DNA of 64,000 bases from a virus (lineage: Duplodnaviria; Caudoviricetes). How positions within the stretch are numbered: position 1 is the stretch's first letter; each line of letters starts with the position of its first letter. The notes beneath the pieces are model-generated. The model was not told where the DNA came from. It did not search any database and saw only the letters and a list, made by a program, of their open reading frames with translations. The stretch spans positions 1 to 64,000 of IMG/VR virus record IMGVR_UViG_3300033066_000778; one strand, 5' to 3'. Below are positions 23,300 through 42,200 of this stretch, piece by piece. Position numbers and translations under genes: made by a program.

Positions 23300-26200
23300 T
23301 TACTGGTAAGTATAGTACTTTGTTTTTAGGTCGTACTGCTCGTCAGGGTTTGTTACCCTAACGTCGTAGCTATGATCTTGAATTGGTGGAGGAACGATGA
23401 TAATACCACCACCTGGCTGTTGAATAACCGTTGGCGTCCTTATGATAGTAAGAGGCTCTGGTATCATGGTTCCAATCTTGAGGTAAGGGGGTGTAATAAG
23501 CTGTGTAGATCCTTCTTGGGTGACAAGTAGGGTTTGGTCCCCGATGGTCACAGTGCCCGTTCTGGTCGCTCCTGCGTTAGCCATTACTGCTATTGTTACG
23601 GAGCCATTACCTGTACCTCCAGCCGAAACTGGAATTCGAATCCATGCATCTGTTGTAGTAACGGTCCATACACAAGATGGTCCTGTCGTTACTGCTATGA
23701 TATGTTTCGTATCTACGCCACCAGTAGGGATGTAAATAGAGCTAGGATTTAGAGTAAACGTACATCCGCCAGCAGATGCTTGAATAACAGTAAAAGTATT
23801 TCCTTCTACTGTTATAGTCCCGTTTCTTGGAGGACCAGAGTTTTCAGCAACGTCAAAAAAGATCTTCGCACTACCTGTGTTATTGGTAGGACTGGTTATG
23901 GTTAGCCATGCATCGTTGCTTACAACTGTCCAGGGGCAAGTAGGTCCACTTGCTGTTACTTCAAATGACATCCCTGTAGATGCCGTAGCTGGAACGCCTA
24001 CCGATAAACTTCCTAACGTGATAGTACAGACATCGGGAGGAGGTGGAGGAGTTTGTAGGTAGATATTAAGACTTTCGGAACAAACAGCCTCATCATTGAG
24101 TGTAAGCGCGAACTGCACCCTATCCAGAACGGTAGTTGTGGGCTTTATGAGCTTAACCTTATTTACGATGTAGTCTAAATGTGCTTTGGTTAGGAATGTT
24201 CCAGTAGTTCCCTTCGCTTTGATAAGAAAGTGAGGAGTTTGATACCAAATATAGTGTTGTGGGTCTGTGTCCTCAATTGTATACGCGTAAGAGACGAAAA
24301 TTCTTGAAGGTGAAATAAGAATTGGTCTAAAACCAAAAATTAGCTTGTTACAGCTGTTATTTACCTGTAAGTTATCGAGTTCTAACGTTTCAGTCGGTCC
24401 AAAGGAGCTATTTGTTACGGTTAACTGGCTATTTACTACTGAAGCTACTAATCCTGCTCCAGTAAACGTTGCATCATTGTTCAAAAGAGTACTTAAAGCA
24501 CTTGGAAAGTACCCTGTCGTGTTTTGTGGAACTGGAACGATGATTCTTGTTCCACGTACAGAGAAATACAGTGAAGAAGACGTAAGAACTTTTACAGGCC
24601 AAGTAACATTACTTCTGATTACAGCTTTTTTATACGAGTTTACGCCATTTTCCGTAAAAAAGACTAAATCGGAAATAATTCCAGTTTTATAGTCAATTTT
24701 TCCTAGTAATTTTGATGATGTAACACTATCTGTGGTGTAAGACCATGAAATTGGGTCACCAACAGCGTCAAAAGTCTTCTTTCTGTTATACAAGTATCCA
24801 TCACCTAGGTAATCTCGTAGGTATACAATGTTGTTATTATCGTCTGTGTACGAAACAACAACGCTATTTGGCTGAATACTGGTGTTTTGGAGTGTTAACG
24901 CGAATTTATTCTGTGTCTTAGTCCAAAAAACAGGTTTTGACACATTTTTATTGAAAACATTTACGTTAACTTTTGCTTCGACAAGCGATTTTTTGTTCTT
25001 CTTATCATACTCAGCGACGGGAACATGGTCCTGAACGAGGTAAATAGTACTTCCTGGTATAAAAGTAGGTTCAGTACCAAAAAGCGTAGGACCAAGGTCG
25101 TAAAGTTTTTCAAAATTTACGTCAAAATTGACAAAATTGCCGTCGCCCTTCTCAGTAGTCTCAACAACGAGTTTATTTCCGATTAGAATGAACCTGAAAG
25201 GCCAATTTTGAACAGCGGCATTTAAAGTCTCTACTACATTGGAGTACTCTAACACCAAACCTGGAGCAAGCGTAAGCGTGTAGTCCGTATCATTTACGTT
25301 AAAGTATAGCTTATTCGATAGTAATGAGACAACGATTGGGAAAGTGACTTCCTCACCTTGGATGTAGGCACTTTGGTCTTCAGTTACGTTTTCCGGATAT
25401 AGAAAATTGTTGTAGTTTGGAGAATTTCGGTCTAAATCAATAGGAGCTTGATAAAAGTACGTGTAATTGTACTTAAGAGGAACTAAGACCTTACCATCTC
25501 CTCCACCACCGCCTCCGGTTCCACCCCCACCGCCTGAGCCACCATCACCAGGAACAGTGAATAAGGCGGTACAGATCCATGGGCTTTCACTGTAAGCATT
25601 TGAGGACTTAACACAAGCTCTATAACGTGTGTTGGGCACGAGGTTAGGAATCTTTAGACTTCCTCCCCATTGCCCCATTTCATATACGTTGTAGTACCAG
25701 TGAACGCCCGGATCGGTTGGATCTGATCCAGCAGCATCGGTATTTGTGACCTTTACGAAGTACTCATAAGTATAAGGAACGAGCTGCGTTAGAGACTTAG
25801 GAATTTTCCATAAGAACGCAGCATTAGTTCCAGATACTTTTAAAGCAACGATTTCAGGGATTTCTGGTGGATGAGAGCCGGGATCAATTGGTATTGGCCT
25901 TCCTACAATAAAGGAAGATGGACCGTATCCACCAGCATTAAAGGCTTGAATCTTAAATGTGTAGTCTGTTGTATTATCTAATCCAGTAAATTCCGCTGTA
26001 TGAACAGACCCAGAGATCTGCTTTACTTCTCCAGTAGATATATTGGTTACGCTGTATCCGTCGATGTTAACTGACGTTCCACTAACAACCCCACCAGGGG
26101 CTTGCAATGTCGTAGCATAGTCCAACGGAGGGCTCCACGTAAGGACAACGCTCTGATCCCTACCTTGGATGCTAAAGCCTTCTACGGAGCCAGGAACCAG

Positions 26201-27424
26201 GGTTCTTCCATCTATACCTACAATTGAAATTACAGGAGAAGAGGATAGACCAAGATAGTTTTGTGCTTGGATCGAGAATGAATACTGTACGTTAGGTAGT
26301 AACCCAGTAACTACAAGAGAAGAAGTTCCCGGTTGCGTCCAGAATTCTTCTCCAGTATTCATGTTTTTGATTAGGTAGGCAGATATTGGGTAGCCACCAT
26401 TATCAATCGGGGCTGACCACTGTAAGGTGGTATTCGTTCCACTTACGGTATTCTTAAAGTAAGAAACAGGCCCTGGAAGGAACTTTACACCAGGATCAAC
26501 TCTTAACTGTAATTTAACGTTTACAAAAGTAAACTGGTTAAATCCAGTGGGAAGGGTATTGTTCTTTTCTAATTCTGAAATAAGAGCAAGTTTAGTATAG
26601 CCTTTCTTGTTCACGGCTAAGGAACCAAGAGGTATTGAAACTTCCTGTCCAGCCAGTAAAGCTGCTCCTCGGGTGCCGATAACTCCTAGTTCTGTCAAAA
26701 CAGGAGTAAATGTAGCATTTGTCGTTGAGTCATCTGCCGTCTTATAGACATAGAGATTTATACTATCATCATTTAAGACAGTCTTCGTTACGTCTAGCGT
26801 GACTAATAAATTAGCTTCTAAGACAGCATCTTGCTCATTGAGAGATCTTGTATCAAATAGTAGATACGGACGACTATAATTAGTCGTAATTGCTGTTTGG
26901 TCAGAGATATCACGGAGATTATCTACCCAAGCATTTTTTATTGCTAATCCCTTATCTGCAATAAAAATAGAACTAGCTTCATACTGAAGTGAGCTAAAGT
27001 AGTTATCTGTGAACTTAACCAAGTCACCTACGTTACCGTACCGCATCAAGATATCTTTGGTGTAAGAAGAATATGGTATTTTCCCAATTCCTCTGCTTAC
27101 AGCAAAACTAAGTAGACACTTCTCAGCAAATGCTTGTATTGACGGAGTTACGGTACACGTAGCCGGAAGCTGCTTAAAATATGTTGATGGCCCTACAGTT
27201 ATAGGTAGCTGTTCACGAAAGCTATTTCTGTAAGTTACAGTATCTCTGTAATCAATGTTTGGGTATACATCTGTTGGTGACACGTATAGAGAAGACGCCG
27301 AATAATCTCTGGAAAGAACAGATATTCCAGTAATGAAGGCATCTGGAGACTTGACGAAATCTCTATATGGAATACCATTTAAGGTACTCCATGACATGAT
27401 GGGGTATGTTTTTATTTCCGTCAT
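23300..27424 (-). CDS. Large baseplate wedge/fibre protein with 3 FN3 and 2 BACON-like domains and a C-terminal half-IPT motif
   Basis: FN3 LQWSAP..GGYPI..Y.FSIQAQN; BACON CPWTV..DAWL..VAENSG..RNGTIT; gpI-like IKPTTT. Confidence 0.75.
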   Translation of the reverse strand: MTEIKTYPIMSWSTLNGIPYRDFVKSPDAFITGISVLSRDYSASSLYVSPTDVYPNIDYRDTVTYRNSFREQLPITVGPSTYFKQLPATCTVTPSIQAFAEKCLLSFAVSRGIGKIPYSSYTKDILMRYGNVGDLVKFTDNYFSSLQYEASSIFIADKGLAIKNAWVDNLRDISDQTAITTNYSRPYLLFDTRSLNEQDAVLEANLLVTLDVTKTVLNDDSINLYVYKTADDSTTNATFTPVLTELGVIGTRGAALLAGQEVSIPLGSLAVNKKGYTKLALISELEKNNTLPTGFNQFTFVNVKLQLRVDPGVKFLPGPVSYFKNTVSGTNTTLQWSAPIDNGGYPISAYLIKNMNTGEEFWTQPGTSSLVVTGLLPNVQYSFSIQAQNYLGLSSSPVISIVGIDGRTLVPGSVEGFSIQGRDQSVVLTWSPPLDYATTLQAPGGVVSGTSVNIDGYSVTNISTGEVKQISGSVHTAEFTGLDNTTDYTFKIQAFNAGGYGPSSFIVGRPIPIDPGSHPPEIPEIVALKVSGTNAAFLWKIPKSLTQLVPYTYEYFVKVTNTDAAGSDPTDPGVHWYYNVYEMGQWGGSLKIPNLVPNTRYRACVKSSNAYSESPWICTALFTVPGDGGSGGGGGTGGGGGGDGKVLVPLKYNYTYFYQAPIDLDRNSPNYNNFLYPENVTEDQSAYIQGEEVTFPIVVSLLSNKLYFNVNDTDYTLTLAPGLVLEYSNVVETLNAAVQNWPFRFILIGNKLVVETTEKGDGNFVNFDVNFEKLYDLGPTLFGTEPTFIPGSTIYLVQDHVPVAEYDKKNKKSLVEAKVNVNVFNKNVSKPVFWTKTQNKFALTLQNTSIQPNSVVVSYTDDNNNIVYLRDYLGDGYLYNRKKTFDAVGDPISWSYTTDSVTSSKLLGKIDYKTGIISDLVFFTENGVNSYKKAVIRSNVTWPVKVLTSSSLYFSVRGTRIIVPVPQNTTGYFPSALSTLLNNDATFTGAGLVASVVNSQLTVTNSSFGPTETLELDNLQVNNSCNKLIFGFRPILISPSRIFVSYAYTIEDTDPQHYIWYQTPHFLIKAKGTTGTFLTKAHLDYIVNKVKLIKPTTTVLDRVQFALTLNDEAVCSESLNIYLQTPPPPPDVCTITLGSLSVGVPATASTGMSFEVTASGPTCPWTVVSNDAWLTITSPTNNTGSAKIFFDVAENSGPPRNGTITVEGNTFTVIQASAGGCTFTLNPSSIYIPTGGVDTKHIIAVTTGPSCVWTVTTTDAWIRIPVSAGGTGNGSVTIAVMANAGATRTGTVTIGDQTLLVTQEGSTQLITPPYLKIGTMIPEPLTIIRTPTVIQQPGGGIIIVPPPIQDHSYDVRVTNPDEQYDLKTKYYTYQ

Positions 27425-27433
27425 AAATACTCT

Positions 27434-27901
27434 TTAGTAGAATTGGTATCCGCTGGTGTAAGTATATAGCTGTTCGTCAGGATTAACAACTGTTACATCT
27501 ACTGACTGAGCTAGGTACTGAACAGCGGGCATGGTTAGTTTTATGTACGGAGGGGAAATTTCTACGTATTCTGTGTAGTCTGGCGTCCATAATGGAATGA
27601 TATCTACGTCTATACCAAGAGAGTAAAAGAGTATTTTGATTGAATCTACTGTTCCTTTTGTTTTGTACAGATCAATAGCATATTTGAGATTTTTTCTCAG
27701 GAAACTTGGATCTTCTTCTTTATCTTGTGGATAACCGAGTATATTATGGATAATATCCAAGTTTTCGTCAGGAACACGGTCTATGTCAAAGTTATCCAGT
27801 AACGTATCAATGAAATACTTGACGTTGTCAAGTGTCATCGCTGCTAGCTGTGTTACTGCTCGGACATCCGATTTATTCTCTGTATTAAAGTCTAATTGCA
27901 T
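27434..27901 (-). CDS. Baseplate wedge protein (P2 gpI/T4 gp7 core-like)
   Basis: DIDRVP..L..LGY..AIDLYKTKGT..SI..LG; C-terminal half-IPT motif. Confidence 0.75.
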   Translation of the reverse strand: MQLDFNTENKSDVRAVTQLAAMTLDNVKYFIDTLLDNFDIDRVPDENLDIIHNILGYPQDKEEDPSFLRKNLKYAIDLYKTKGTVDSIKILFYSLGIDVDIIPLWTPDYTEYVEISPPYIKLTMPAVQYLAQSVDVTVVNPDEQLYTYTSGYQFY

Positions 27902-30291
27902 TATTGTTCTTCTTTAAATACGGAAGGTAGATAATCAAACAAATAGAGTTGGTGAAAGGCGTCGGCAACAGTTACGGCTTTCGATTGAACAGAGATCAAT
28001 CTTGGCTTTTGTACAAGTATTGTCCCTGGATCCGTACTGGAGCATTCACCTTCTGATCTGATTACAAGTGAAAAGTCCTTTTCTCCTGTAAGTCCTTTCG
28101 CGTCAATAACCTTTATCGTAACGGGCCATGTACCATATTCAGTTGGGATACCATGTAGTTCGCCTGTCATCTGGTCTAGTAATAAGCCTTCAGGAAGGCC
28201 GTATTCAGAAACAACGAACCAGTAATACGGTGGTGCTCCACCAGTTACGAGTATAAATTGCTGGTAAGCGTAGTTCTGGCAACCAATCTTTAGATCAGGA
28301 TTAAGGATTACTGGTATCCCTACGACGTTTAAATAGAACGTTAGAGTATCTGCACACTTATTTCCATCAAAGGCCGTAATTGACTGAGCGTATAAGCCTT
28401 CTTTGGTTGGTGTACCATATAACGTTCCAGTTATACTATTGAAGAATAATCCATCTGGAACGTCTGAAAGTTCCCATGTTAATGGTAGCGTTCCACCTAC
28501 AGCAGAGAATGTGTATTCGAACGGCTGTCCTACTCCTACGAAGGAGAAGTTTGGTGCTTGAACTACTGGAGAATCAAATACTACTATCGTACAACCGTAG
28601 AGGTAAACGATACCCATTCCAAACGTTCTTGTTGCTGTTATTTCAAAGTAGTACGTTCCTGGTTCGGTCGGAATGCCACTGATAACACCACTTGAATTTA
28701 GTGTAAGGCCAATTGGCAGACTTCCAGTAACGAGTTCATAAAGGAATTCAGGATCCCCTGGAGCTATGATTCGTTCAAAAACGTATTCAAATCTACTATT
28801 TTTACAGACGGAACCTAGATCAGTTGCTATCGCAGAACTATTTGCTACAAGAAATGTAAGTGTTTTAAGACCAATTCTGTCTAAAGAGTCTTGGGCAATT
28901 ACGTCTACAAGGTAAGTTCCATTCGAGGCAATTGATCCAGTAATGATTCCCGTATTCTCGTCAATGAGTAATCCAGCAGGAGGTGGATTATTGATACCGA
29001 ACGACCAGCGGTATGGAGCGTCACCACCTGTTGCGGTGCATACAATAGTATAAGGGGTGTCAGGAACTACAGCGGGTGGAGTTGAAGGCAAACAAGCTAT
29101 GTCAATACCGGCAGTTATGTAGAGTACTGTATCCCATCGGTCGTAGCAACCTGTCCCGTCAGTACTTGCAAGGATAGAGATAGGGAATATGTTAGAAAAT
29201 ACCGTTGTTCCTGAAAACAATCCTGTTGAACTTACGGTAATTCCCGTTGGTAGTAGCCCAATACCATTAATTTCATCTACAGTATATGAGTAAGCAAATG
29301 TGTTTGTGTTTGTGATTGCTAGCTGAAATGAATATGGTGTATTTATTTGTCCTACGGCCAATGGCGTAGCCGTATCTAAAACAGGTCTATTACTCCACGG
29401 TATTTCTCTAGAATAGTCATACGTAGATGGTGTAAGGGCTGAGTCTGTAACTCTTACTGTTAAATTAAAGGACTGAAAGTCTGGAGGGGCATCAAAGTCT
29501 GGGAACGTTAGGTAGATTAAATTTCCATCGAAATAGCCACCGTCTGGAAGTGGATCACTGCCGGGGGCTAGCGCATAAGAGTAAGGTGGTGTGCCTCCCC
29601 AAGTGTAATCAGCCGCTGTCGTTGATACAACGCCTATGTTAGCACAGAATGCTCCGACAGCCCCGCCTTTAGCATATACGTTTGGATCACCAATGGAGGC
29701 AATTGCAGCTATCCATGGTGTTATATAGTGAGTAGAGCCGTTTGCATCTGTAACACGAACTGTTGATTGGTATGCTTCTACGGCATCAGGTGTTACTGTT
29801 AGTAGCCCCGTATTATCTACACTGACGTAAGCTGGTGACCAGTCTAATGACCATGTGATTGGCAGGACTCCACCAACGCAAACAAATTGAACAGTATCTG
29901 TGTTACCAACTACGAAAGGTGCTAAGTAAGAATCCCCAAGATCTCCCCAATAAGTTAAAGTACCCCCAACATCAATAAAAATGTTTGGTGATGTTAAAAC
30001 ATTGAGAGTAAAGGTCTTTGTTATTGTCTCTGGTGAGACTGGATGAGAGTCAGTAACTCTAACTGTAATTGAGTGAGATCCGACATAGTCTACAACGTCA
30101 GGTGTATTCCCAGCTGTTACGTTACATGTAAGAAGACCCGTTCCGCTATTAAGCGTAAACATACTATCTGGATCATCCTCGATAGTCCAGACGTATGGTT
30201 CATAACCATCTATTGCTACTAGTTGCTCTTGAAAAACATCCCAGATGTATGAATCTGAGAATGTCGTTCCATTAGTTATGCTTAAGGCCAT
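27901..30291 (-). CDS. Putative Ig (He_PIG-like) repeat virion protein
   Basis: Repeated GG.PPY.W..LP.GL.L...G.I.GTPT..G.Y. Confidence 0.8.
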   Translation of the reverse strand: MALSITNGTTFSDSYIWDVFQEQLVAIDGYEPYVWTIEDDPDSMFTLNSGTGLLTCNVTAGNTPDVVDYVGSHSITVRVTDSHPVSPETITKTFTLNVLTSPNIFIDVGGTLTYWGDLGDSYLAPFVVGNTDTVQFVCVGGVLPITWSLDWSPAYVSVDNTGLLTVTPDAVEAYQSTVRVTDANGSTHYITPWIAAIASIGDPNVYAKGGAVGAFCANIGVVSTTAADYTWGGTPPYSYALAPGSDPLPDGGYFDGNLIYLTFPDFDAPPDFQSFNLTVRVTDSALTPSTYDYSREIPWSNRPVLDTATPLAVGQINTPYSFQLAITNTNTFAYSYTVDEINGIGLLPTGITVSSTGLFSGTTVFSNIFPISILASTDGTGCYDRWDTVLYITAGIDIACLPSTPPAVVPDTPYTIVCTATGGDAPYRWSFGINNPPPAGLLIDENTGIITGSIASNGTYLVDVIAQDSLDRIGLKTLTFLVANSSAIATDLGSVCKNSRFEYVFERIIAPGDPEFLYELVTGSLPIGLTLNSSGVISGIPTEPGTYYFEITATRTFGMGIVYLYGCTIVVFDSPVVQAPNFSFVGVGQPFEYTFSAVGGTLPLTWELSDVPDGLFFNSITGTLYGTPTKEGLYAQSITAFDGNKCADTLTFYLNVVGIPVILNPDLKIGCQNYAYQQFILVTGGAPPYYWFVVSEYGLPEGLLLDQMTGELHGIPTEYGTWPVTIKVIDAKGLTGEKDFSLVIRSEGECSSTDPGTILVQKPRLISVQSKAVTVADAFHQLYLFDYLPSVFKEEQ

Positions 30292-30294
30292 ATG

Positions 30295-32814
30295 TTACTT
30301 CTTAATCTCATAGACAAACGGTGTGGTGTTCCAAGCTCGTGCAGTTATCTGCATTCCTTTTCCAAAGAAATACGTTAATTGCGTTGTAGGATCGTACCAG
30401 CTCCATTTGAAGTATCCAGTCTTTTGATTGAACCAGAATCTAAACTGTCCTTGCTCATCCTTTCCTGGGTAAAGTTCAAGGATATCACCAAATAGTGTTT
30501 TTATTACTGAATCTCTAGCGTCAAGGATGTCAAGTGGATATGTTGACGAGAGTCTAAGTTGTTCACCGGAAGGGTTGTTATACACACTTTCTAAGTTTAT
30601 GTCTAGCGTAAGTACATCACCTTCTCGTGGAATACCTATGCTCGTAACAAACAACACTGTATTCTTGTTTAGAATATAATCTTGCTGAGGAATCTGTAAT
30701 TGTCCATTTTTAAAAACAGTTAAAGGAAGCCCAACATACTTTAGTGGATACGTAAATAGGATGTTTGCCCCGTCTGTTGGTCCGGAAAGGGGTAAAGTTA
30801 CGATTATATTGTTCTTGCTATACGCGATTTCGTAGTCTACTATAATTACGTCAGTACTTTTTGGAGGGGTAACGAACGTAATGATGTTAGACCCTACATT
30901 ATATTCAATGTTGTTAAATGGAATTACCCTGACTCCGTTTTTGTATACTTGAACTGAGTTTGGTTTAGGAATGAAGGGCAACGTAAAGTACTGATTAACG
31001 TTGTTCTTTTCCCCATGAGGAAGTTCATTCAAGATGAAATCTGTAGTGTTATAGTTTACGATGATATTTACCGTATCATTAGGGAGTATAATCTTCGTAA
31101 ACTCAATTACATTTTTAGCAACGAGTTTGTAGTCGTACTCGGTATCTCCAACACGGAATTCTTTGAGACGTAATCCATTCTTGAATACTTTTAATGTATA
31201 GTTGTTTTCATTCGGATTTTCAATAACGAACGAAAACTGGTAATCGTTGATCTTCGTCATGTTTTCAAGTGTAAGACGATTATCAACGAACTTCGTATTG
31301 AAAATACTGGCTGTAATGCAGTTTTCTCTAAACTGCTGTGTACTGTTTAAGTACGTAATGATCTGATCTAGGGCTAGAATCTTACTATATTGATAAACGA
31401 AAAGCTTATCCGTAGCTTCAGGAACAGCCCATGGATTAAAGACTATTTTATTCTCTGTAGCACTAAAGACGTAGTCATTTACGTCAGTGTCACTAGTATC
31501 CCTATGTTGAAGAAGTCCGTTTTTATACACTTGCGGTATACTGACGTTTGAATATATAGGAGAAATAAAGAATGTATCAGTACCTCCAGGTGGAGGGCTT
31601 AGGTTAGGCGTAAAGACTGCTCTTTTAGTCTCATACTTTTGGTAGTCAATGAAGAGCGTGTCTACTTCTTGTGGAACGTTCTTTCCAACTAAATGTAATT
31701 CTGCTTCAAGAATAAAGTAGTCTGAGGCATCTTTTGGGTTCAGATGCAAACCATTTAGATATACTTCGATAGTCTGTACATCTGCTTCATCTGGTAGAGT
31801 AAAGATAGTATTTACACCATCTTTAATCCCCCCAGGTGGGTATTCTAGTACGGTGTCTTCGGCAGCATAGACATAAACGAGTATGAGTTTATCTGTCTTT
31901 TTAGGGGCTACACTGAACGTAGCTATTCCAACACGAGTTAAAGGGTCTAACGTGTAGGTATAATCTAAGTTTTGTATTTGTCTTACACCATTTTTGTATA
32001 TCTTAAACTTGATATTAGCCAATGGTAGTTTGAATGAGAAGTTTTTGTTTAGTCCATTTCGCTGTCCGAGTAGAAGCGTAAAATCAGCGTAAGGAATGTT
32101 TGTGAATGGAACGTCAACACGGTTATTATCTAAAAGAAAAGATAAAACCTTACCTTCAAGATCTTCATTGTTGATAGGAAACTTAGCACTGTAGCCTCTA
32201 AGTTCATTCCTAAAGACTTCTCCAAGAACAGTACCATTAGAGCCAACATGTACGTTATTTAGATAAACGAAAACTCTTGTATTACAGTCAAAGTTAGGTA
32301 GTCCAGTTCCATTATTGATGTAGTAGGAGAGGTTTCCTATTACGTGGTTTTCTCCCTCGTAAGGAGGACGCATCAAACCATTCTCGGCAATGACGCAAAG
32401 GTTGGTTGGGGTGGGAGTTGAACCGATCGCGTATGGAATAGAACGGTCAGATATAGTCTTGTAAGGTGCTTTGGCCCTTAGTGTGATCGTTTGACCGTAA
32501 TTTGACATCGAGAATACGTCAAAAAAGAATGCCGTTGTCTCCCAATTACCGTTGGTATCACTTAAGATCGTGTTTTCTTTTATCTTAATCGTCCCATCCT
32601 TATTTATCTCAGGTGGGTTGATAAGGAAACCATTAAGATATAAGTAGATATATGCATTTACCTCTGGAAGAATACGGCCATTTACGTCAACAGTACCTAC
32701 CCAACCACGCAAGAAGTTAACTCCAGGCGTGATCTCCTCAACGTAAGGAGTTGGCGTAGCTGTTTTTGTCTGGCTAGCTCGTTTAGTATCGGATAAGTAT
32801 GTCTGTATTTTCAT
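30295..32814 (-). CDS. Repeat-containing baseplate/fibre protein
   Basis: About six VYKNG..Q..DY..I.F..P..D repeats. Confidence 0.65.
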   Translation of the reverse strand: MKIQTYLSDTKRASQTKTATPTPYVEEITPGVNFLRGWVGTVDVNGRILPEVNAYIYLYLNGFLINPPEINKDGTIKIKENTILSDTNGNWETTAFFFDVFSMSNYGQTITLRAKAPYKTISDRSIPYAIGSTPTPTNLCVIAENGLMRPPYEGENHVIGNLSYYINNGTGLPNFDCNTRVFVYLNNVHVGSNGTVLGEVFRNELRGYSAKFPINNEDLEGKVLSFLLDNNRVDVPFTNIPYADFTLLLGQRNGLNKNFSFKLPLANIKFKIYKNGVRQIQNLDYTYTLDPLTRVGIATFSVAPKKTDKLILVYVYAAEDTVLEYPPGGIKDGVNTIFTLPDEADVQTIEVYLNGLHLNPKDASDYFILEAELHLVGKNVPQEVDTLFIDYQKYETKRAVFTPNLSPPPGGTDTFFISPIYSNVSIPQVYKNGLLQHRDTSDTDVNDYVFSATENKIVFNPWAVPEATDKLFVYQYSKILALDQIITYLNSTQQFRENCITASIFNTKFVDNRLTLENMTKINDYQFSFVIENPNENNYTLKVFKNGLRLKEFRVGDTEYDYKLVAKNVIEFTKIILPNDTVNIIVNYNTTDFILNELPHGEKNNVNQYFTLPFIPKPNSVQVYKNGVRVIPFNNIEYNVGSNIITFVTPPKSTDVIIVDYEIAYSKNNIIVTLPLSGPTDGANILFTYPLKYVGLPLTVFKNGQLQIPQQDYILNKNTVLFVTSIGIPREGDVLTLDINLESVYNNPSGEQLRLSSTYPLDILDARDSVIKTLFGDILELYPGKDEQGQFRFWFNQKTGYFKWSWYDPTTQLTYFFGKGMQITARAWNTTPFVYEIKK

Positions 32815-32815
32815 A

Positions 32816-34618
32816 TTAGACTGGGCTGTAAGTCGTTAGGTCCGTTTCTGGGTTTGGGTGCCCGTAGTATCCACCAGAAGGATAGGGCTCGTCTGTAATA
32901 GGTTCGTAGGTAATGTTTATATGATTTATGTTTGTACCAGGATAGTAGGTATACCCGTTTGTATAAATGTCTAACTGTCCATCCGGATTGATTACTTGAA
33001 TGTCATTTACACCGACAAAGTACGATGAGGGCATCGCAAGCTGTAAGTATGGTGGAACGACATTAGTTGGTTCAGATACCGTTGGGATCGTAGAAACGTC
33101 ACCAAAAGTTGGAATCTTCCATTTCTCTAGGATGATATCCATAGGAGGATTAGGAGCTTCATCAACTCCGATGCCTTCCGGTGTCGTGTATAGTCTGCTT
33201 ATTCTCGCCCAAGCAACACCAGGAACCGAGTTTATAAGAGAGGAAATAGCAGAGAGTCGAATGTCCTGTCCAAATGATACGTTATCGAAAGAGTAAAAGT
33301 CTAGAATACTAGTACGGATTAAGTCGATAACGATGTTTGGATCATACTGATTAACATCAATTCCAATGTGTATGGTAACGAAAATGTCTACCAATACAGG
33401 ATCAACGAAAACTAATCTTGTAGTTACAGGCATTTTTTCTGCAACTGTTTTTCTTACAATGTTATCTCGTAGTGTTCTATAACTGGCTCTAGATGCTGGG
33501 TTATAGAACATATCGCTGAATTCTTTTGAGAAGAAAGTTAGTCTTACTTTGTTAAGCAGTCTGTAGTCAGGGACAGCTTCTTCGTCTTCTCCCCATGCAG
33601 CAGCTTTTGTGACGTTTGGAATACCCTCAACAATAGAGGTATAATCTGTTTTTGATAAGGCCCTTCCTAGTCCAAAAAGATTACCGATCGCCTTTTTCTT
33701 AGCCTTATCAATACTCTCCTGGTCGTCACCACCGGCTGTAGCTTGACTGTTTACAACAAGTAATTCTACTTTGTTTCCTACAGAATCGGCAACGAGAGGA
33801 GCGCCAGATACAACTTTGTTAATAGCGTTCTTACCGACATTTCCATCAAGTCCTTTCGTCTGGATGTAGTTTATCGTAATGGTAGCGTTGTAAGGAGGAA
33901 TAGCTCCAAATTGCCCATCACTGAATGAGATGTACACCCTGGAGAACTCATCTACTTCTGTCGTAAAGTGTTTGGAATCTTCTTTAGACTTATAGAAGGA
34001 CTCGACGAGTTCCCATTCTTTAGCTTCTTCATTATCCGTTAGATCGTTGTCAATGAAGACCTGAACGGATGATTTATCAATGTTCGCTAACGTAAGAACA
34101 AACTTCTGGTTTGGTGTTCCGTCAGAAGTAAATACATCAATACTCTGTGTTCCTTGAATAACTTGGATCGTCTTAGTATCACTTGGTCCCGCTAGTGTAG
34201 TCGCACCGAGGGCCGTATACGTAATACTCTGCGTATCTTTTTGAGCGGAAAACTGTGTACCTTTAGAAACGTAAACAGGGTAAATAGGGCTTTCGTTTGG
34301 AGAAACCCTTACCGTAACAGTGCCCGTCGCCGCTGAAACGCTATTTACCTTATACCCAATTAGCTTAAGTAATGAGATAACGTTTTTTCGTTGTTTGGCT
34401 CTTTCGATATCGAGTTCATTACACTGCATATCCAAGTAGAACATTAGGTTGTCTACCATGGACATAAACGTTTCCAAAAGAACGATACCAGGATCAGAAT
34501 CATTAAGATCTGTCCACTGTCCCTTAGAAACAATCGGAATTTGTTTAATCAGTTCATCTCGTAAGGACACGTAGTCTTTAGAGAGGTAACTGGATTTGGT
34601 TGCTACAGGTACTGCCAT
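32816..34618 (-). CDS. Baseplate wedge protein (T4 gp6/baseplate J-like)
   Basis: KDY..LR..WTD.N.SDPG..LLE, FSDGQFG.IP, GLDGNV, GGDDQES, DY. Confidence 0.9.
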   Translation of the reverse strand: MAVPVATKSSYLSKDYVSLRDELIKQIPIVSKGQWTDLNDSDPGIVLLETFMSMVDNLMFYLDMQCNELDIERAKQRKNVISLLKLIGYKVNSVSAATGTVTVRVSPNESPIYPVYVSKGTQFSAQKDTQSITYTALGATTLAGPSDTKTIQVIQGTQSIDVFTSDGTPNQKFVLTLANIDKSSVQVFIDNDLTDNEEAKEWELVESFYKSKEDSKHFTTEVDEFSRVYISFSDGQFGAIPPYNATITINYIQTKGLDGNVGKNAINKVVSGAPLVADSVGNKVELLVVNSQATAGGDDQESIDKAKKKAIGNLFGLGRALSKTDYTSIVEGIPNVTKAAAWGEDEEAVPDYRLLNKVRLTFFSKEFSDMFYNPASRASYRTLRDNIVRKTVAEKMPVTTRLVFVDPVLVDIFVTIHIGIDVNQYDPNIVIDLIRTSILDFYSFDNVSFGQDIRLSAISSLINSVPGVAWARISRLYTTPEGIGVDEAPNPPMDIILEKWKIPTFGDVSTIPTVSEPTNVVPPYLQLAMPSSYFVGVNDIQVINPDGQLDIYTNGYTYYPGTNINHINITYEPITDEPYPSGGYYGHPNPETDLTTYSPV

Positions 34619-34619
34619 A

Positions 34620-35069
34620 TTAAATTCCTGCTAGGTACTGTTTTCCCTTGATTACTTCACTAAAAGGTCTTCCTGCTCTCATAAAAGGAAATACATAAGA
34701 CCCTGGGGTATTCGTCGCTTTTATTATGTATTCAACAGTAATATCAATCTGATGATCGCTTGGATCCTCAAATTTGAGGTTTGTTACTGTAATACGGCGT
34801 TCCCACCTGTCGATTGCTTCAAGTAGCGTATAGGCTAATAGACTTTTAAGAATAGCGTCGTTAGGCTCAAAAATACCGGCTAAGAGATCGCAGCCATACT
34901 CATTACTATTGTAGCGTTCACCCTTTCTTGTATTGATAAGGATGTGTAAAGCTTCGTTAATCCGGTCTTTACCAGTCGATGTTTCTAGGAACTTATTTTT
35001 CTTTGCGGAGGAGAAAGTAACAGGGTATTTAATTCCTGTTCCAATAACCTTGTTTAACTGGTAGTCCAT
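34620..35069 (-). CDS. Baseplate wedge gp25/GPW-like protein
   Basis: TRKGER..YGC.L...FEP..AI.RWE.RI. Confidence 0.9.
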   Translation of the reverse strand: MDYQLNKVIGTGIKYPVTFSSAKKNKFLETSTGKDRINEALHILINTRKGERYNSNEYGCDLLAGIFEPNDAILKSLLAYTLLEAIDRWERRITVTNLKFEDPSDHQIDITVEYIIKATNTPGSYVFPFMRAGRPFSEVIKGKQYLAGI

Positions 35070-35078
35070 TCTGTCTCC

Positions 35079-36158
35079 TTAAGAAAAAACGTACATCCGT
35101 GGGTTATTTCCTGTTGTAACGTAAATGTACGTAGAGCCTGCTTCTTCAAATCCACACCAGTTTATGAAGTTACAATCAGAATGAGATACCGTTACAACAT
35201 TAGATGCAGCTGTGTTTTCTGTAGTATCCACAGTGATATTTACAAAGCCGTAAGAAAGTGCAGTATCACGAAGGAACCATGCTCTTGGGTTAGAGCCAGA
35301 CATATAGGAGAACGCTGTTCCTAATGGTGCTGTACCGGATCCAAAGAAAGATTCTGGAGGAGAAACTTGGTATGTATGGTCTATTGTTCCATTATCGAGA
35401 ATTTCGGCTACAACAATATCTACTGGTGCTAGCGTTGTGGAGCTTAAAAGACTAACAAAGATCCAAACATGTCCTGCGTCGAATGGATCGGCAACCATCG
35501 TAAAGTCGTTTATGACATAATCTGTTGGCGTAGCGATTCCAAAGTCCGTTAGGGTTAAGACACGTTGAGTAAAGTTCTCAGTGATATCAGGAGAGCCATA
35601 CGCCCCAGATGCGTCTAGGAGAATAAGCGTTCTTACGGTATCATTTGTAAGGACGTATTTTCCATCAGACATTAACCTTGACGGAGTATTAGGTAACTCC
35701 GGTACGGTTATTTGATAAGAGGCTAGTGTACCATTTATATCCGGTGGAGGTATAGCATTACCATTACCCGCTGTTAAACTTGAATCGGATATATCAGCTG
35801 CGTAGAAGAAGTTAAAGCCTCTTCCAAACGCAACGTATTTTCCATCTGGTCTTTTAAGAATAGTGACGTTTAGTGGCCTTGGAAGATTCGAAATCGTATC
35901 TCTAACTTCAAAAATACTTCCTGAGTCAGTAAGGACTACTGTACCTGATGTCGAGTCATTCCATCCAACAATCATTCTGGTACAGTCTTTAGAAAGGTAG
36001 ATTGCCCCAACGGTACTTTGACCATCACCGTGAACGGTAAATGGACCTCCCCCGCCTTGGGTTACCATATTATGATGACCCGCTACAGAAGGAGATCCTG
36101 GTGTATTTAGATTTACGACTGAGTAGCCGTAGCACTGTGATACTACAAACTTATGCAC
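35079..36158 (-). CDS. Beta-rich virion protein (possible propeller/receptor-binding)
   Basis: 359 aa, beta-strand-rich, within the baseplate cluster. Confidence 0.5.
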   Translation of the reverse strand: MHKFVVSQCYGYSVVNLNTPGSPSVAGHHNMVTQGGGGPFTVHGDGQSTVGAIYLSKDCTRMIVGWNDSTSGTVVLTDSGSIFEVRDTISNLPRPLNVTILKRPDGKYVAFGRGFNFFYAADISDSSLTAGNGNAIPPPDINGTLASYQITVPELPNTPSRLMSDGKYVLTNDTVRTLILLDASGAYGSPDITENFTQRVLTLTDFGIATPTDYVINDFTMVADPFDAGHVWIFVSLLSSTTLAPVDIVVAEILDNGTIDHTYQVSPPESFFGSGTAPLGTAFSYMSGSNPRAWFLRDTALSYGFVNITVDTTENTAASNVVTVSHSDCNFINWCGFEEAGSTYIYVTTGNNPRMYVFS

Positions 36159-36732
36159 CGCCGACGCCTCCTATTGTCCCACCATTAGCATAGCCATTAG
36201 CGAAAATTGGAGGAAGACCGGGTGAAAGGTTTATGTTAGTTCCTGTTACAAGGGAGCCTCCAATTCCACCGGGGGAACCTCCTCCACCACCAGGAATGAT
36301 TCCTCCACCGCCTCCACCGACTGGATCAGGAATGCCTGGAGCTAATGCACCCGGAAACTGTGCTCCAGCGATACGACCCATAGCCGCTGTATTTACGGAG
36401 TTCACAAAGTCAGAAGCTGAGGGAATACCCGGAGGAGGCGGAATGGCCGGTGGTTGAGGGATCGAAATTCCTTGCCCAACAGAAGCTATAGCTTTATTTA
36501 GGATTGCATCACTGAACCCTGTTATATTGGGCGCGTTAGCAATCATGTTCGTAAAACCACCAGGACCAGACGCTAGAGCAGACAAGCCCGAGGGTAAAGA
36601 AGGGAATCCAGGTACACTTTGAAGTAACGTGAGCAAATTCCCCATCAGTCCCATCATTGCTGCTTGGGAAGTTTCAAGTGTTTTTAGTCTGGCGGCTGTT
36701 ACTTGTGTTTGGACGTTAAGGGCATTTCCCAT
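36151..36732 (-). CDS. Gly/Pro-rich hypothetical virion protein
   Basis: 193-aa low-complexity protein following the beta-helix gene. Confidence 0.6.
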   Translation of the reverse strand: MGNALNVQTQVTAARLKTLETSQAAMMGLMGNLLTLLQSVPGFPSLPSGLSALASGPGGFTNMIANAPNITGFSDAILNKAIASVGQGISIPQPPAIPPPPGIPSASDFVNSVNTAAMGRIAGAQFPGALAPGIPDPVGGGGGGIIPGGGGGSPGGIGGSLVTGTNINLSPGLPPIFANGYANGGTIGGVGGA

Positions 36733-36743
36733 CGTTACTATCC

Positions 36744-39266
36744 TTAGAGGATTTCAAATGGCGTTGTTACTGTTATTCCAGCAATTGCTACGGTTATAAC
36801 ACTAGCACCAACAGTTGTTGTTATCTCGGTTCCTGCAAAGTATTCTGATGTCGTAGTGGCACCTTCGGAAATCGTATTGGCCCTTAGAGAGATTTCGTCA
36901 GCCATAGCTGATAGATTGATGCTACTAGAAGTACTAGTCATATGAATATGGTTTTCTACGGTAATATCCCAGTAGTCTCCAACATCCATTGTGGCATACT
37001 GTGTATAGACTTCTCTAAGACGTTTTGACTTCATTTCAATCATGTCGTCAGCAGAGATAAACATACTTCCGTACGTATCTACGAATGCAGAAGAAGCATT
37101 TCCGAGTGAAGAGCCATGAGACTTCGTAACTACTCTTGTATTGGACATATAAAGGCCAAACAAGAAGGAATCACCACGCATATAGACGTAAGGTGATTTT
37201 ATATATGCTAGTTTTGCTGTTGCAGAACCAAGGGTAGTGTTTCCAGTTACTGAAATGTAATCAAAGTCTGCAATAGCGTAGTTTTGGACTTGAAGCTCTC
37301 CATTAACTTTTACTACTGAGCCTTTTACCAAGCTTTTATTAGCTGTTAAAGACTGTAGGCCACAGTAAGAAAGGTCAGTAATTGAAAGATCTTTTAGCTC
37401 TGTCGTTCCAACATCAGAGTCAGTAAGGAATGACGTTGAGCCTTTACTGGTGAAAACTTCAGATGTAATGAACTTTCCATTTAGTACACAACGAGTTATA
37501 TCAATTTCATTTACAGAGGTAATACCTTTTAGTTCAATATCATAGTTTCTGCCTAATAGTTTCGTATTAAGTGTGATAGGCCCTGTACAAGAGAAAAGAA
37601 AACTTCCCGTACTCTTGGTACTATAGAGTTCAATCTTTTCTCCAGTGATCTTTGCGTTAGTTCCTGCTCCGTTATTATCAATGATCAGGTCTGACTCATT
37701 GAGGTAAATACCCTTTTGACTTAAAATGTTCTGTGATGTCTTTACCTTGATTTTATTCCCTACTTTATTACACCTGATCGCGTATTCCTTACCTTCTAAA
37801 GTAGTGCAGTTTACAAGATTAACAACTGCGTTTGTGTCAATATCAATCCCGTTTCCTTGACTGTTAGTGGCTTTTGCACTTACAAGGTTTTTTACGGTTA
37901 ACTTTGAGAATGACCCAACTTTAAAAGCATGGGCACCTTCAATTTCTCTACTGTTAGTAATAAGAGCAAAGGAGTTATTCCCGACATAAATAGCTGCGTC
38001 GTCTGTAGTTCCACTATTTTCCATCTTGATATTGGAAACATATAGAACCTGGAGTCTAGCACCATTATTTGTTTTTACTGTTGTTTTATCTTTACTTGTG
38101 ATGTTAGTGATGTTAAGTAAGGTACAGATACTCTGGTCAAGTAAAATAGCTTCTTTTGACGAGCTACTTGTTTTCATGTCTTTTATGCTGTAAAAGTACA
38201 ACTTTGAGTTCTTCGTAGCGGATATTACAGAATCTGTATCATTGGTGATATTATCGAAAACCTTAGCAAAGATAGAAGAACTTTCAGCGTTAAAGGTTTC
38301 TTTAGCCTTAGTCTTTATCTTTGCTTGAGCTGACGCACCAATCATATCAAGATTTGATGAAACTAGTTTAAACGTTCCTTCTTGACTTTCAATTTCCTTA
38401 ATAGAAGTTAAAGAAACCTTAGACTTGTCTGCGGTAAAAAGTGTTCCACCTGTTACCGTGTTTTTATATGTTTCACCGTTAATGTAGATATCTGACGACG
38501 TAGCATCTACGAGTGTTTTATTCGCCTGAAGTGTCAAAGCTTTGTTTATTTTGATAACAGAATCTTTTGCCTTAATCAACGTTCCGACTGACTTGAAGTT
38601 CTGGACATTGAACGTTTCGAGCTTACTAGCTGAATTGATATCAAATAATGAGGTATCAGCTTTTTCGCCTTCTATCTTTGTAAAGTCCCATACCTCAGCA
38701 GTAGAATTCTTACTGAGGTAAACGAACGTAGCGTAGTTTTGAATCTTTATCGGATTAACAATAGAGATGAAACTGTTATTCTGACCCTTTACGGTGAACT
38801 CTTCCCATTTCCCCCACGTATCCTTAATGCTTTCTACACGGCTTTTAAGAACAAAAAGCCCTATCTTATTAAAAGAACCTGAAACAGAAGTCCAGTCAGA
38901 ATCTTTACTCTTTAGAAGAGATTTATTTTGAACGAATATTGACTGCTTAATCTTACACTTAATAAACTCAACCTTTGAGGAGTTGAACGTCACTTTAGAA
39001 GAAAACGTACACTCCTCAAAGATACAAGCTGAGTTTCTTAGGTTGAAGTTTGTAAAGTCCTTTTTGAAATCGCATTTGTAGAAGTAAAGGTTATTACTGT
39101 TTGTCTTAAGCGACTCAAAATTACATGAGTAAAACTGAACGTTTATATAGTCAGGAAGGGTGCAAGTTCCCTCGCACCCGTTTATCCTAATGGTAGCACT
39201 ACTGTTTGGTGGTGCCAAAAAGTAGTCTACTTGATCCTGAATTGACTTTTTTTGTTCAGTTGCCAT
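36744..39266 (-). CDS. Parallel beta-helix protein (spike/depolymerase-like)
   Basis: Long regular S/N/K/I beta-coil repeats; C-terminal short repeats resembling a gp5 needle. Confidence 0.6.
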   Translation of the reverse strand: MATEQKKSIQDQVDYFLAPPNSSATIRINGCEGTCTLPDYINVQFYSCNFESLKTNSNNLYFYKCDFKKDFTNFNLRNSACIFEECTFSSKVTFNSSKVEFIKCKIKQSIFVQNKSLLKSKDSDWTSVSGSFNKIGLFVLKSRVESIKDTWGKWEEFTVKGQNNSFISIVNPIKIQNYATFVYLSKNSTAEVWDFTKIEGEKADTSLFDINSASKLETFNVQNFKSVGTLIKAKDSVIKINKALTLQANKTLVDATSSDIYINGETYKNTVTGGTLFTADKSKVSLTSIKEIESQEGTFKLVSSNLDMIGASAQAKIKTKAKETFNAESSSIFAKVFDNITNDTDSVISATKNSKLYFYSIKDMKTSSSSKEAILLDQSICTLLNITNITSKDKTTVKTNNGARLQVLYVSNIKMENSGTTDDAAIYVGNNSFALITNSREIEGAHAFKVGSFSKLTVKNLVSAKATNSQGNGIDIDTNAVVNLVNCTTLEGKEYAIRCNKVGNKIKVKTSQNILSQKGIYLNESDLIIDNNGAGTNAKITGEKIELYSTKSTGSFLFSCTGPITLNTKLLGRNYDIELKGITSVNEIDITRCVLNGKFITSEVFTSKGSTSFLTDSDVGTTELKDLSITDLSYCGLQSLTANKSLVKGSVVKVNGELQVQNYAIADFDYISVTGNTTLGSATAKLAYIKSPYVYMRGDSFLFGLYMSNTRVVTKSHGSSLGNASSAFVDTYGSMFISADDMIEMKSKRLREVYTQYATMDVGDYWDITVENHIHMTSTSSSINLSAMADEISLRANTISEGATTTSEYFAGTEITTTVGASVITVAIAGITVTTPFEIL

Positions 39267-42200
39267 TATTCTTCAACTAGAATGATATTTTCTGGTGGTA
39301 CTTCTACGCTTCCGATAAATACTCGTGGTTTACTAGCTCCTCTAGAGAAGAAGTAGCGGCCAAGGACATAAACAGTGTTTCCACCCGAAGATGGTCCCGA
39401 GGCAGGTACGATTCCCGTAATTACAGGAGCAGCCCTGTAGGTGTACCCATTATCACCAGCGGATAATGTTCCGATTCCAGAAGAGTTTTGTACGTAGAGA
39501 TTAACGTCAACTCGACCAACGTTGTCATGCGGTAAACTCCATGTTGGCGTCGTAGCATAGATCCTTTGTGGATTAGACTGTAGATCAACCGATGTGATCG
39601 TAGCGTTGAATGAAGATCCGAAGTCTAAACCAAACTTGAATACAACGTCACTTGTGAAATTCGTACCATAAAGAACAACCGCCTGACCACCGGAGAAAGG
39701 ACCGTCTTGTTTGTCAATACTTATGATCGTTGGTACACTTTGAATCGTGTACTCATAAGTTGAAATTGACGTTGCCTGTCCACCATCAGTATTTACAACT
39801 CTTAGGTAAACAACAAGGTCAAGAGGGTTAATCTGCGATGAGGCAGCGGGTGTTACGCAAGTAATCGTCGTTCCATTGTTTAGTAATTGGATATTACGTG
39901 CTACGTTGTTACCAAAGTAAACTGTAACTCCACTGGCGAAACCAGTTCCATTGATTGTTACAGGTGTTCCACCGTCAACTGGTCCTGTTGCAGGAGAGAA
40001 TGACGTGATTGAAACAGCACTCTGCTGCGTGTTAAGGATTAAGGTAAACGTCGTGGTAGCGGATAGTGGAGTACCACCCGTACTGTCTTGTACTCTTACT
40101 GTAAACGTGTAGTTACCAGGAGTGTTATTCGAAGCAGCCGTACCGCTTAATACACCACTTGAGGAAAGTGTGATGCCCGCAGGAAGCTGCCCTGATGTTA
40201 CAGACCAAGAGTAAGGGAGAACCCCTCCCGTCGCCTGTAATGTCATGCTGTAAGGAGAACCAATCGTTGCTTGGAACAACGAAGAAGTTACGATAGAGAT
40301 TGAAGCTCCACCTGTTACGCTGATCGTAAGGGCTTTACTTGCATTCTGAGCAGGAACGGCGCTGTCTTGTACACTAAAAACGAGATCTTTTGTAAGCGCG
40401 GTTACGAGTGGAGTACCTGTGATCGCTCCCGTTGAGGAATTTAGGCTTAGTCCATCTGGTAAAGCGGGATTAACCGTCCAATTTACGTAAGGAGAAACAC
40501 CACCTTCGGCAGCAAGTGAGGTACTATAAGCACTTCCGATTACTGCGTTTGGTAATGAGCCTGTTGAAATTGAAACGGATGTTGGTACGATTGCGATGTT
40601 CGCACCAGACGTTGTTACTGCTCCAGAAAGGTAGTCTTTAACGTTTACCGTGTTTGTAGCATAGATATCATCGACGCCAAGCCATACTGATGGTATTGTG
40701 GCACTTAGGACACCGGAATTATACGTTGTTACAAGTTCGATTCTATCCCCAACATTACCTTTAGGGTCGTAAAGAACCTTACAAGAGTTATTGAAGTTCG
40801 TTCCTGTGACTTGAATTACCTTGTCTATTGGAGAACCGATCGCTTGGATAGAATTCGGAGAAACAGTTCCTACAGAAAGTACTGGTGTAGCAGACCAAGT
40901 AAAAGCACCAGCAAGGATAGCAAGTATTGTTGCGTCAGCTGTGATAGCTTCAATATCGCAGAGTCCAGCTGCTCCTCCCCATGGAACACCACCGGCATTA
41001 AGTGTGATCTCAATTACAGTTCCTGTGTTAGAAGTAGGAACGTAGTTCTGGTAAACACCTGTACCTTGTAAACGAATACGAATGAAATCTACGGCAGCAA
41101 GGTTAGTTCCTGTTACCGTTACACCTGTTAACTCTGGCCCCGTGATAGAATAAGTACTTGGCGTTATACTATCGACCGTAGTAATACCACCACCACCGCC
41201 CGATGGGTCACCGACTACTTTAACAACCTTTGAAGTTATCGCGTTGTTGTTTCGAACAGCCTTGATAATAATTGTTTTTGTAATACTCTGTGTTATTTCA
41301 CCAGTTACTCTAAGAACACAGTTACCATTTACATTTTCGATTGTTAGCCAAGGAAAATCAGTAGAGATATTGTAGTAAGAACTATATACAAACGTTCCTG
41401 AACCACCAGTTGGAGTTAAAGTATACGTATCCCCAACAGCTGATGCATTGAAGGTACATGTACCTTCTTGGCAGTTCAGATTAAAGTTAGCATCAGATCT
41501 TGGTAATGTTAGGAACCATGTATTTGCATACCCGGCTGTGATAACCTCGCCTGATACTACGTTTGTTTCATAAGCGTTGTATTCGATTGCACAGTTACCA
41601 GGAACACTTGAAAGTGTTGAGGCTGGGAGAGTATAGACGTTACTGAGCCCTGTTCCACTCTGTAGAGAACCAACAGGAGGTAGCGCAAATCCAGGTGCCT
41701 TTGAAAGTTTCCAATCACCTTTTATTGCTGCGAGTGTCTTTGAATCCCAATCTGTAGGAACGCCACGAACCGTAAAGCTCTGACCTTCAAACATGTAAAC
41801 GTATGGGTTTACGATTTGGTAGCTTGCACCTGAGTACGTTACATAGTTTGATGGCCCAGCTTCGTCGTAGTATTTTACAGTAAACTGTTTTGACGTACCG
41901 AATGATGTTGTATCCGAACTAGTACTAACTTGAAAAGTAAGAGTAAATGGATATACAGCACTGTACGTTGTGATGAAGTCTAATGGGATAATGTAAAGTC
42001 GATAGAACGTGTCCTGTGAAAATGGTCCATAGATATGGTAGTAGTCACCTGATGCAGGAGGTTCTTCAAAGTCAGAACCTATAGACGGAATGTTTGTGTC
42101 AAATCCAGTAAGGAACCAAACGGAGTTTGGAGTAGCATCACTGGCTTGATGCTTAACCTTAGTTTTAATGTAGTATGTTCCACCAGCAGTTGTTTTAAAG

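Follow-up and report, generated by a model that had tools for sequence, protein, structure and literature searches.

The window analysed here, the first 64 kb of a 153,958-bp single-contig record of an uncultured contractile-tailed phage (IMG/VR record IMGVR_UViG_3300033066_000778, with an estimated completeness of 83%), contained in its baseplate region an IPT/TIG domain divided between genes: the N-terminal half was found at the end of a 1708-aa immunoglobulin (Ig)-repeat protein (hereafter the plug), and segments corresponding to the C-terminal half were present in three wedge or presumed wedge proteins (hereafter the sockets). All genes of the region were located on the minus strand. In the direction of transcription, a Phage_base_V-type hub/spike protein (387 aa) was followed by the 1708-aa protein with its He_PIG and TIG domains and by an 840-aa protein, then by two small proteins, gp25/W, the gp6/J-like protein (600 aa) and an 839-aa protein, and finally by a 796-aa He_PIG protein, the gpI-like protein (155 aa) and a 1374-aa FN3/BACON protein. 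The gp6-like protein was identified by PF04865 (34.5 bits against a cut-off of 21.1) and phrog_219 (E 3.8e-47), and it matched T4 gp6 (5hx2, E 3.3e-10) and 9gtp (E 1.7e-32) in PDB. The assignment of the gpI-like protein was marginal, with 21.7 bits for PF09684 versus a cut-off of 20.6 (residues 15–107), the same family being found also in its relatives. The FN3/BACON protein, presumed to be wedge-associated, gave FN3 matches alone in a PDB sequence search, and the same search with the 840-aa and 839-aa proteins gave no match. No close relative was detected among the GenBank phages at the DNA level; in phage records searched by protein, the best identity of the gp6-like protein was 26%, and the gpI-like protein had one weak match.

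The C-terminus of the 1708-aa protein reads ...ENIILVEE, directly followed by the stop codon. Its last 56–58 residues, approximately, corresponded to positions 1–45 of the 84 positions of the Pfam TIG profile (PF01833; E 9.1e-10, 38.8 bits against a cut-off of 20.9), and this third IPT domain of the protein, preceded by two complete ones, stops after the strands A, B, C and C'/D. The B-C loop of the plug holds a clade-specific insertion, FF.RG..KPR. A hidden Markov model (HMM) of the N-half, applied to the whole genome, matched the 1708-aa protein only, and did so three times (two of the matches at residues 1459–1506 and 1553–1601). The plug was the best-conserved stretch in the C-terminal region of the protein, with a mean pairwise identity of 57% versus 35–42% for the halves of the complete IPT domains. 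In blastp comparisons with five relatives, only the C-terminal 450–620 residues were collinear to the very end; the N-terminal parts were variable, and the total length ranged from 1083 to 1708 aa. Judging from sequence comparison, such C-terminal conservation together with N-terminal variability is the usual signature expected of an anchor end combined with a variable distal end, and the protein may function as a fibre or an adhesin.

The three socket segments, 39 to 63 residues long and beginning at positions 33055 (gp6-like protein), 27553 (gpI-like protein) and 23491 (FN3/BACON protein), were the only matches to PPY[LIVM].[LIVM] and NPD.Q, whether the window or the whole genome was scanned. 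An HMM built from the complete IPT domains of six related phages placed all three at approximately positions 46–85 of its 85 positions, with best domain E values, valid for a small database, of 3.5e-5 for gpI, 0.0087 for gp6 and 0.021 for the FN3 protein. In the hhalign comparison, the segment profile aligned with columns 54–91 of the whole IPT profile, i.e. with its last 38 columns (P 5.8e-5). Among 1.84 billion protein representatives, giant TIG-repeat proteins, including P0086 and P0075 (PF01833 in the precomputed annotation), were matched by positions 124–156 of the gpI-family profile in as many as 24 repeats each; within every 85-residue IPT repeat, the part matched was the F-G hairpin ...VDV.V.NPD.Q......F.Y. 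When an HMM was made from a single socket class (gpI, gp6 or FN3), its only further matches in the genome were the two other classes (E 6e-8 to 1e-3). This excludes chance similarity of the three segments and indicates that the sockets resemble one another more than they resemble the complete IPT domains of the same genome. In the gp6-like protein the socket represents an insertion approximately 42 residues before the C-terminus (42–43 in the relatives). In this phage only, the socket of the FN3 protein is lengthened by an insertion of about 25 residues, which separates the PPY strand from the F-G hairpin and includes a second strand-like sequence, GGGIIIVPPP, taken as the E strand by the aligner; the insertion may represent a duplicated E strand.

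The cut is located in the D-E loop: whole domains continue through it as ...V.V.S-PT-YI.A.AP, while here ...IILVEE-stop terminates one protein and PPYI.L..P is found on the others. Neither half belonged to an IPT/TIG domain within one polypeptide, the N-half ending at the stop codon and the C-halves being without a preceding N-half in the genome-wide HMM search. As far as the sequence can tell, the genome contains one orphan N-half, three orphan C-halves and no others. The original prediction had claimed that the last IPT domain stops midway, that three baseplate genes bear a motif matching the missing half and that no N-half stands before any of these motifs; the observation proved exact at the stated coordinates, and the profile positions and the N-half search agreed with it.

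Seven related loci were readable (L001, L002, L003, L005, L006, L009 and L010), and the gene order was kept among them. The half-domain C-terminus was present in all seven, ending zero to three residues before the stop codon, and was shared by the library proteins P0073, P0077 and P0081; because the same end recurs in these seven loci and three library proteins, the truncation is not an assembly fault, a caveat that had accompanied the original prediction. The gp6 segment was likewise found in 7 of 7 loci, and NPD.Q was nearly invariant among 31 gp6-like relatives at 46–59% identity. The gpI-like segment stood at the protein end in every locus that includes the gpI-like gene. The segment of the FN3 protein was present in L001 and L006 and absent from L002, and the FN3 copies in three phages retained the core residues.

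The plug was present in all eight phages with the gp6 segment, in line with the expectation that the motif should co-occur with half-IPT ends, while about 40 more distant gp6 loci from IMG/VR (24–34% identity) had neither plug nor socket. These distant loci were obtained by an alignment-based pattern scan of IMG/VR (a scan with a single gp6 protein found nothing); more distant gpI-like proteins, known from contigs of 1.3–2.7 kb or without DNA, were left out of the count. The nearest outgroup, L047 (a 166-kb contig with gp6 of 34% identity), kept the 840-like protein, PAAR, gp25 and gp6 and had no large Ig protein; its gp6 was without exactly the segment of approximately 50 residues, with the flanking EKW.IP and H.N.T blocks retained. 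The segment was also an insertion when the gp6 of the window was compared with that of L004, and complete gpI-like proteins of 110 aa exist that end just before the segment position. Plug and sockets were gained jointly in one clade, which is consistent with their coupling.

In the AlphaFold2 (AF2) monomer made with the gp6 alignment, the body of the protein was predicted confidently (predicted local distance difference test, pLDDT, of 80–92 in most 10-residue blocks), and residues 508–562 had a pLDDT of 37–53. The gpI monomer showed helices to residue 94, with residues 85–155 being without structure (pLDDT 32–43). Completion of the segments by upstream strands of their own proteins, considered already with the original prediction, is argued against, albeit not more than that, by these low-confidence regions obtained from shallow alignments. 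A complex between the C-terminal 58 residues of the Ig protein and residues 96–155 of gpI was then modelled using custom shallow alignments (6 and 10 rows). The interface score ipSAE reached 0.75 (0.75, 0.79 and 0.74 in three runs) versus 0.01 for the best of three controls, with a partner pLDDT of at least 73 and at least 95% of the contacts agreeing between the runs; the result passes a mark that was attained in 58 of the 80 solved complexes and in 2 of the 110 mismatched pairs, counts that are rough here, since custom alignments were used. The contacts with the lowest error connected strand B (NTVYV) with gpI Y119–T123, strand C (RVFI) with gpI V136–V139 and strand D (I156 in A2 numbering) with gpI 120–121. 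The pairing in the model is B-E, C-F and D-E, giving the ABED/C'CFG topology of an Ig sandwich. The plug and the gpI segment are predicted with high confidence to fold as one IPT sandwich, the outcome anticipated for this pair by the original prediction. The positions of all features are given in Table 1.

Table 1. Positions of the split IPT domain, its carrier genes and neighbouring features in the window and in related loci
Feature	Sequence and positions	Strand	Basis
1708-aa Ig-repeat protein gene (He_PIG, TIG)	window 39266..44392	minus	open reading frame; Pfam; blastp against five relatives
Two complete IPT/TIG domains, residues ~1459–1652, directly before the half domain	window 39437..40018	minus	Pfam TIG; alignments; N-half HMM matches
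Plug: orphan IPT N-half, residues ~1653–1708, to the stop codon	window 39269..39436	minus	Pfam TIG; conservation
gp6/J-like baseplate wedge protein, 600 aa	window 32816..34618	minus	PF04865, phrog_219, PDB matches
Socket 1: IPT C-half segment (strands E, F, G) in the gp6-like protein	window 32942..33055	minus	pattern; HMMs; alignment
gpI-like (Tail_P2_I) small wedge protein, 155 aa	window 27434..27901	minus	PF09684
Socket 2: IPT C-half segment, C-terminus of the gpI-like protein	window 27437..27553	minus	pattern; HMMs; complex model
1374-aa FN3/BACON protein, gene directly after gpI-like	window 23300..27424	minus	Pfam; conserved gene order
Socket 3: IPT C-half segment, C-terminus of the FN3/BACON protein	window 23303..23491	minus	pattern; HMMs; relatives L001, L006
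840-aa protein, start overlapping the stop of the 1708-aa gene	window 36744..39266	minus	junction TAATG
Other members of the 840-aa family	L001 6752–9232; L002 6805–9225; L047 5791–8013		
Genes at the PAAR place (193-aa and 359-aa proteins)	window 35079–36732	minus	
C-terminal peptide D[PA]FHQ.YL..Y[LV]P..F	window 27901–27990	minus	
Same peptide in relatives	L001 16220–16306; L002 14230–14311; L003 17990–18075; L006 13610–13695		
Homing-endonuclease types in or beside the baseplate module	L003 8198–9470; L001 21133–21809; L002 19592–19993		
Open reading frame of >3100 aa	L005 8438–16848		

Several further features of the module were observed. The 840-aa protein is probably the central spike; its family had no Pfam, PHROG or PDB sequence match and is characterised by a conserved N-terminus, ..[IL]Q.EIDYQ...G......F.[IL].D..G.C..P, by C-terminal short repeats like those of the gp5/VgrG beta-helix and, in the relatives, by a PAAR gene coming next. 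This PAAR gene (87–89 aa) is located there between the 840-like spike protein and gp25. No PAAR match was found anywhere in the present genome, the record of which is estimated to be 83% complete; its place is occupied in the window by two proteins, one of 193 aa rich in Gly and Pro and one of 359 aa that belongs to no family, and in L005 and L006 by a protein of about 180 aa. Homing endonucleases of the GIY-YIG and Endonuclease_7 types were present in or beside the baseplate module of L001, L002 and L003, the insertion in L003 being located between the spike and gp25. In L005, an open reading frame of more than 3100 aa, running off the locus, follows the 839-like protein and replaces the series of Ig2, gpI and FN3 genes, and no gpI-type socket was seen in the readable part of this locus. 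The 796-aa He_PIG protein, encoded just before gpI, ends with a peptide, D[PA]FHQ.YL..Y[LV]P..F, which was conserved in all relatives on bodies of different types (He_PIG, PKD and Sortilin); in L006 it was found on the 839-like protein instead. This peptide looks like a second, different docking tail.

A docking mechanism can be proposed, in which the 1708-aa protein would be a surface protein attached to the baseplate, with the conserved C-terminus acting as the anchor and the variable N-terminus directed outward. The anchor would be an incomplete IPT/TIG domain with the strands A, B, C and C'/D, and the missing strands E, F and G would be donated in trans by a segment inserted near the C-terminus of the gp6/J-like protein and appended to the gpI-like protein and, in most relatives, to the large FN3 protein. 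On co-folding, the two pieces would form one beta-sandwich with a hydrophobic core common to both chains, resulting in a tight non-covalent joint. We consider it fairly probable that the 1708-aa protein is fixed to the baseplate by an IPT domain rebuilt between chains in this way. The split, its conservation and its fit in silico can be regarded as solid for one pair, and we infer the formation of the joint in the virion, the use of all three types of socket and a role of the protein as an adhesin. Of the docking in trans into three sockets, as originally predicted, the D-E loop split, the conservation of the orphan halves and the plug-gpI model speak in favour, while the third socket, absent from L002, fits less well. 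A wider version of the proposal, according to which one half-domain plug is accepted by three core wedge proteins, giving up to 24 equivalent sites with a single split-IPT code, is possible and rather doubtful.

A number of points weigh against trans docking. The main puzzle is the stoichiometry: a single type of plug faces up to four sockets per wedge (two in gp6, one in gpI and one in FN3), i.e. 24 per baseplate, and filling all of them would require many copies of a 180-kDa protein, a partial or alternative occupancy being possible as well. The plug gene belongs to the hub/spike module and does not adjoin the socket genes, and L002 does without the FN3 socket. Pfam TIG itself gave no match on the short socket segments. 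The complex was folded for gpI, one of the three plug-socket pairs; its score may stem from the memory of the model for the single-chain IPT fold, and what it demonstrates is compatibility with one IPT domain and not binding in the virion. The co-occurrence of plug and sockets concerns a single clade, hence one evolutionary event and not a statistical test. Finally, no cultured relative was found (gp6 at most 26% identical in phage records).

Among the alternatives, the three C-halves might knit the wedge, pairing mutually or with other baseplate parts, for example in a pseudo-threefold (gp6)2-gpI beta module, with the plug binding elsewhere. T4-type wedges have a conserved (gp6)2-gp7/gpI core, and the segments sit in proteins of this core; moreover, the three classes are more alike than they are like ordinary IPT C-halves, the numbers of sockets and plugs have no obvious match, and the FN3 copy is missing in one relative. 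We nevertheless regard such a role as unlikely: the only N-half available to the E-F-G pieces is the plug, the segments occur only in phages that also bear the plug protein, and the confident plug-gpI model shows the topology to be expected of an Ig domain. It is also conceivable that in the particle the plug occupies a single socket, most likely that of gpI or gp6, and that the others are paralogous leftovers or serve another assembly stage or ligand. The loss of the FN3 copy in L002, its 25-residue insertion in the window and the restriction of the plug model to gpI would agree with this; however, the gp6 segment was kept in 31 of 31 relatives with its NPD.Q nearly invariant, and the FN3 copies in three phages retained the core residues, which leaves the use of one socket improbable.

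The two remaining explanations do away with the sockets as partners of the plug. In one of them, the true partner would be the N-terminus of the 840-aa spike-like protein encoded by the next gene, the gene having been split inside the domain and the wedge segments being unrelated. The genes indeed overlap (junction GAA GAA TAATG), and a loose strand-turn-strand pattern can be seen by eye in the N-termini of the family. Against it, hhalign of this N-terminus gave P of 0.4 with the IPT profile and 0.036 with the segment profile, HMM searches found no match, and L047, a locus lacking the Ig protein, has this N-terminus conserved as well; the 840-aa N-terminus was rejected as the missing half on these grounds, and we consider this explanation very unlikely. 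The possibility that frameshifting or read-through extends the half domain was rejected as well: the missing C-half was encoded in no frame downstream of the stop codon of the plug, and the reading frames of the two genes stand in different relations from one relative to the next, with no conserved frameshift fusion. In the other explanation, the halves would be functionless decayed remnants or artefacts of annotation or assembly. The oddity of a truncated domain is all that speaks for this, and the conservation data already contradict it, the same cut being present in ten independent sequences, the half domain being better conserved than its neighbours and no continuation being found in other frames; it can hardly be credited.

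The proposed joint between the plug and the wedge proteins has partial counterparts among known systems. In the chaperone-usher pili (Fim, Pap, Caf1), an Ig-like fold is completed by one or more strands of another chain, resulting in very stable non-covalent joints. The likeness consists in an Ig-like fold that is incomplete in one chain and completed, here by prediction, in trans. However, the pilins lack the G strand alone, depend on an usher as well as a periplasmic chaperone, and polymerise head-to-tail, in contrast to the present case, where the strands E, F and G, nearly half of the domain, are missing and the joint would connect unlike virion proteins. No chaperone or usher family was found in a Pfam scan of ten neighbouring proteins; none of the marks of donor-strand systems (a single missing G strand, a chaperone, an usher) was present. 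SpyTag/SpyCatcher, derived from the CnaB2 domain, and split green fluorescent protein are man-made split-domain tags, of which the Spy pair becomes covalent through an isopeptide bond. They resemble the plug and sockets in being a beta-rich domain in two pieces that reassemble, and nothing here points to a covalent bond as in the Spy pair. T4 Hoc is a string of Ig-like domains projecting from the virion, anchored C-terminally and bound to the capsid through a complete C-terminal domain; the 1708-aa protein shares the string of Ig domains and, as proposed, the C-terminal anchor and differs in having a split fold instead of a complete domain.

The closest case is the baseplate tripod of the Lactococcus phage Tuc2009, in which, according to the crystal structure, a C-terminal beta-hairpin of BppU completes the beta-sheet of BppA domain 2 (PMC4742702). 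In both systems a C-terminal extension of a baseplate protein completes the sheet of a sandwich domain in an accessory protein, of carbohydrate-binding type in Tuc2009 (PMC4742702), and thereby attaches that protein to the baseplate, in our case by prediction. Tuc2009 differs in that the phage is a siphophage, in which a single donor gives two strands to a single acceptor and no named domain can be recognised as split (PMC4742702), whereas here three of the seven Pfam TIG strands would be donated by three different core wedge proteins belonging to a contractile tail. BppU and BppA of Tuc2009 showed no sequence relation to the present system. Distinctive of the latter is a named Pfam domain cut into 4+3 strands, with the C-halves in three conserved wedge proteins encoded 6–16 kb from the plug gene and with several types of socket. 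Keyword literature searches on phage baseplates found no description of an equivalent arrangement, which is a weak negative; the original assumption of no precedent among phage baseplates can be maintained to this extent for the arrangement as a whole, but not for the completion of a sheet between chains, which BppU and BppA already exemplify (PMC4742702).

If trans docking of the 1708-aa protein is correct, it would account for the attachment of an Ig-repeat protein that is large and evolves fast to the conserved core of a contractile-tail baseplate without a dedicated adaptor, and the core wedge proteins gp6/J and gpI would be able to acquire small docking modules. For annotation, the lesson would then be that truncated domains are not necessarily errors and that orphan segments of 40 residues can be sockets. 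A pair of 56 and 40 residues that folds only on binding would, furthermore, be a candidate for a natural split tag. Should the single split-IPT code also be true, it would represent a natural, portable, non-covalent 4+3-strand pair for hanging exchangeable surface proteins on conserved machinery, which could be borrowed as a protein tag.

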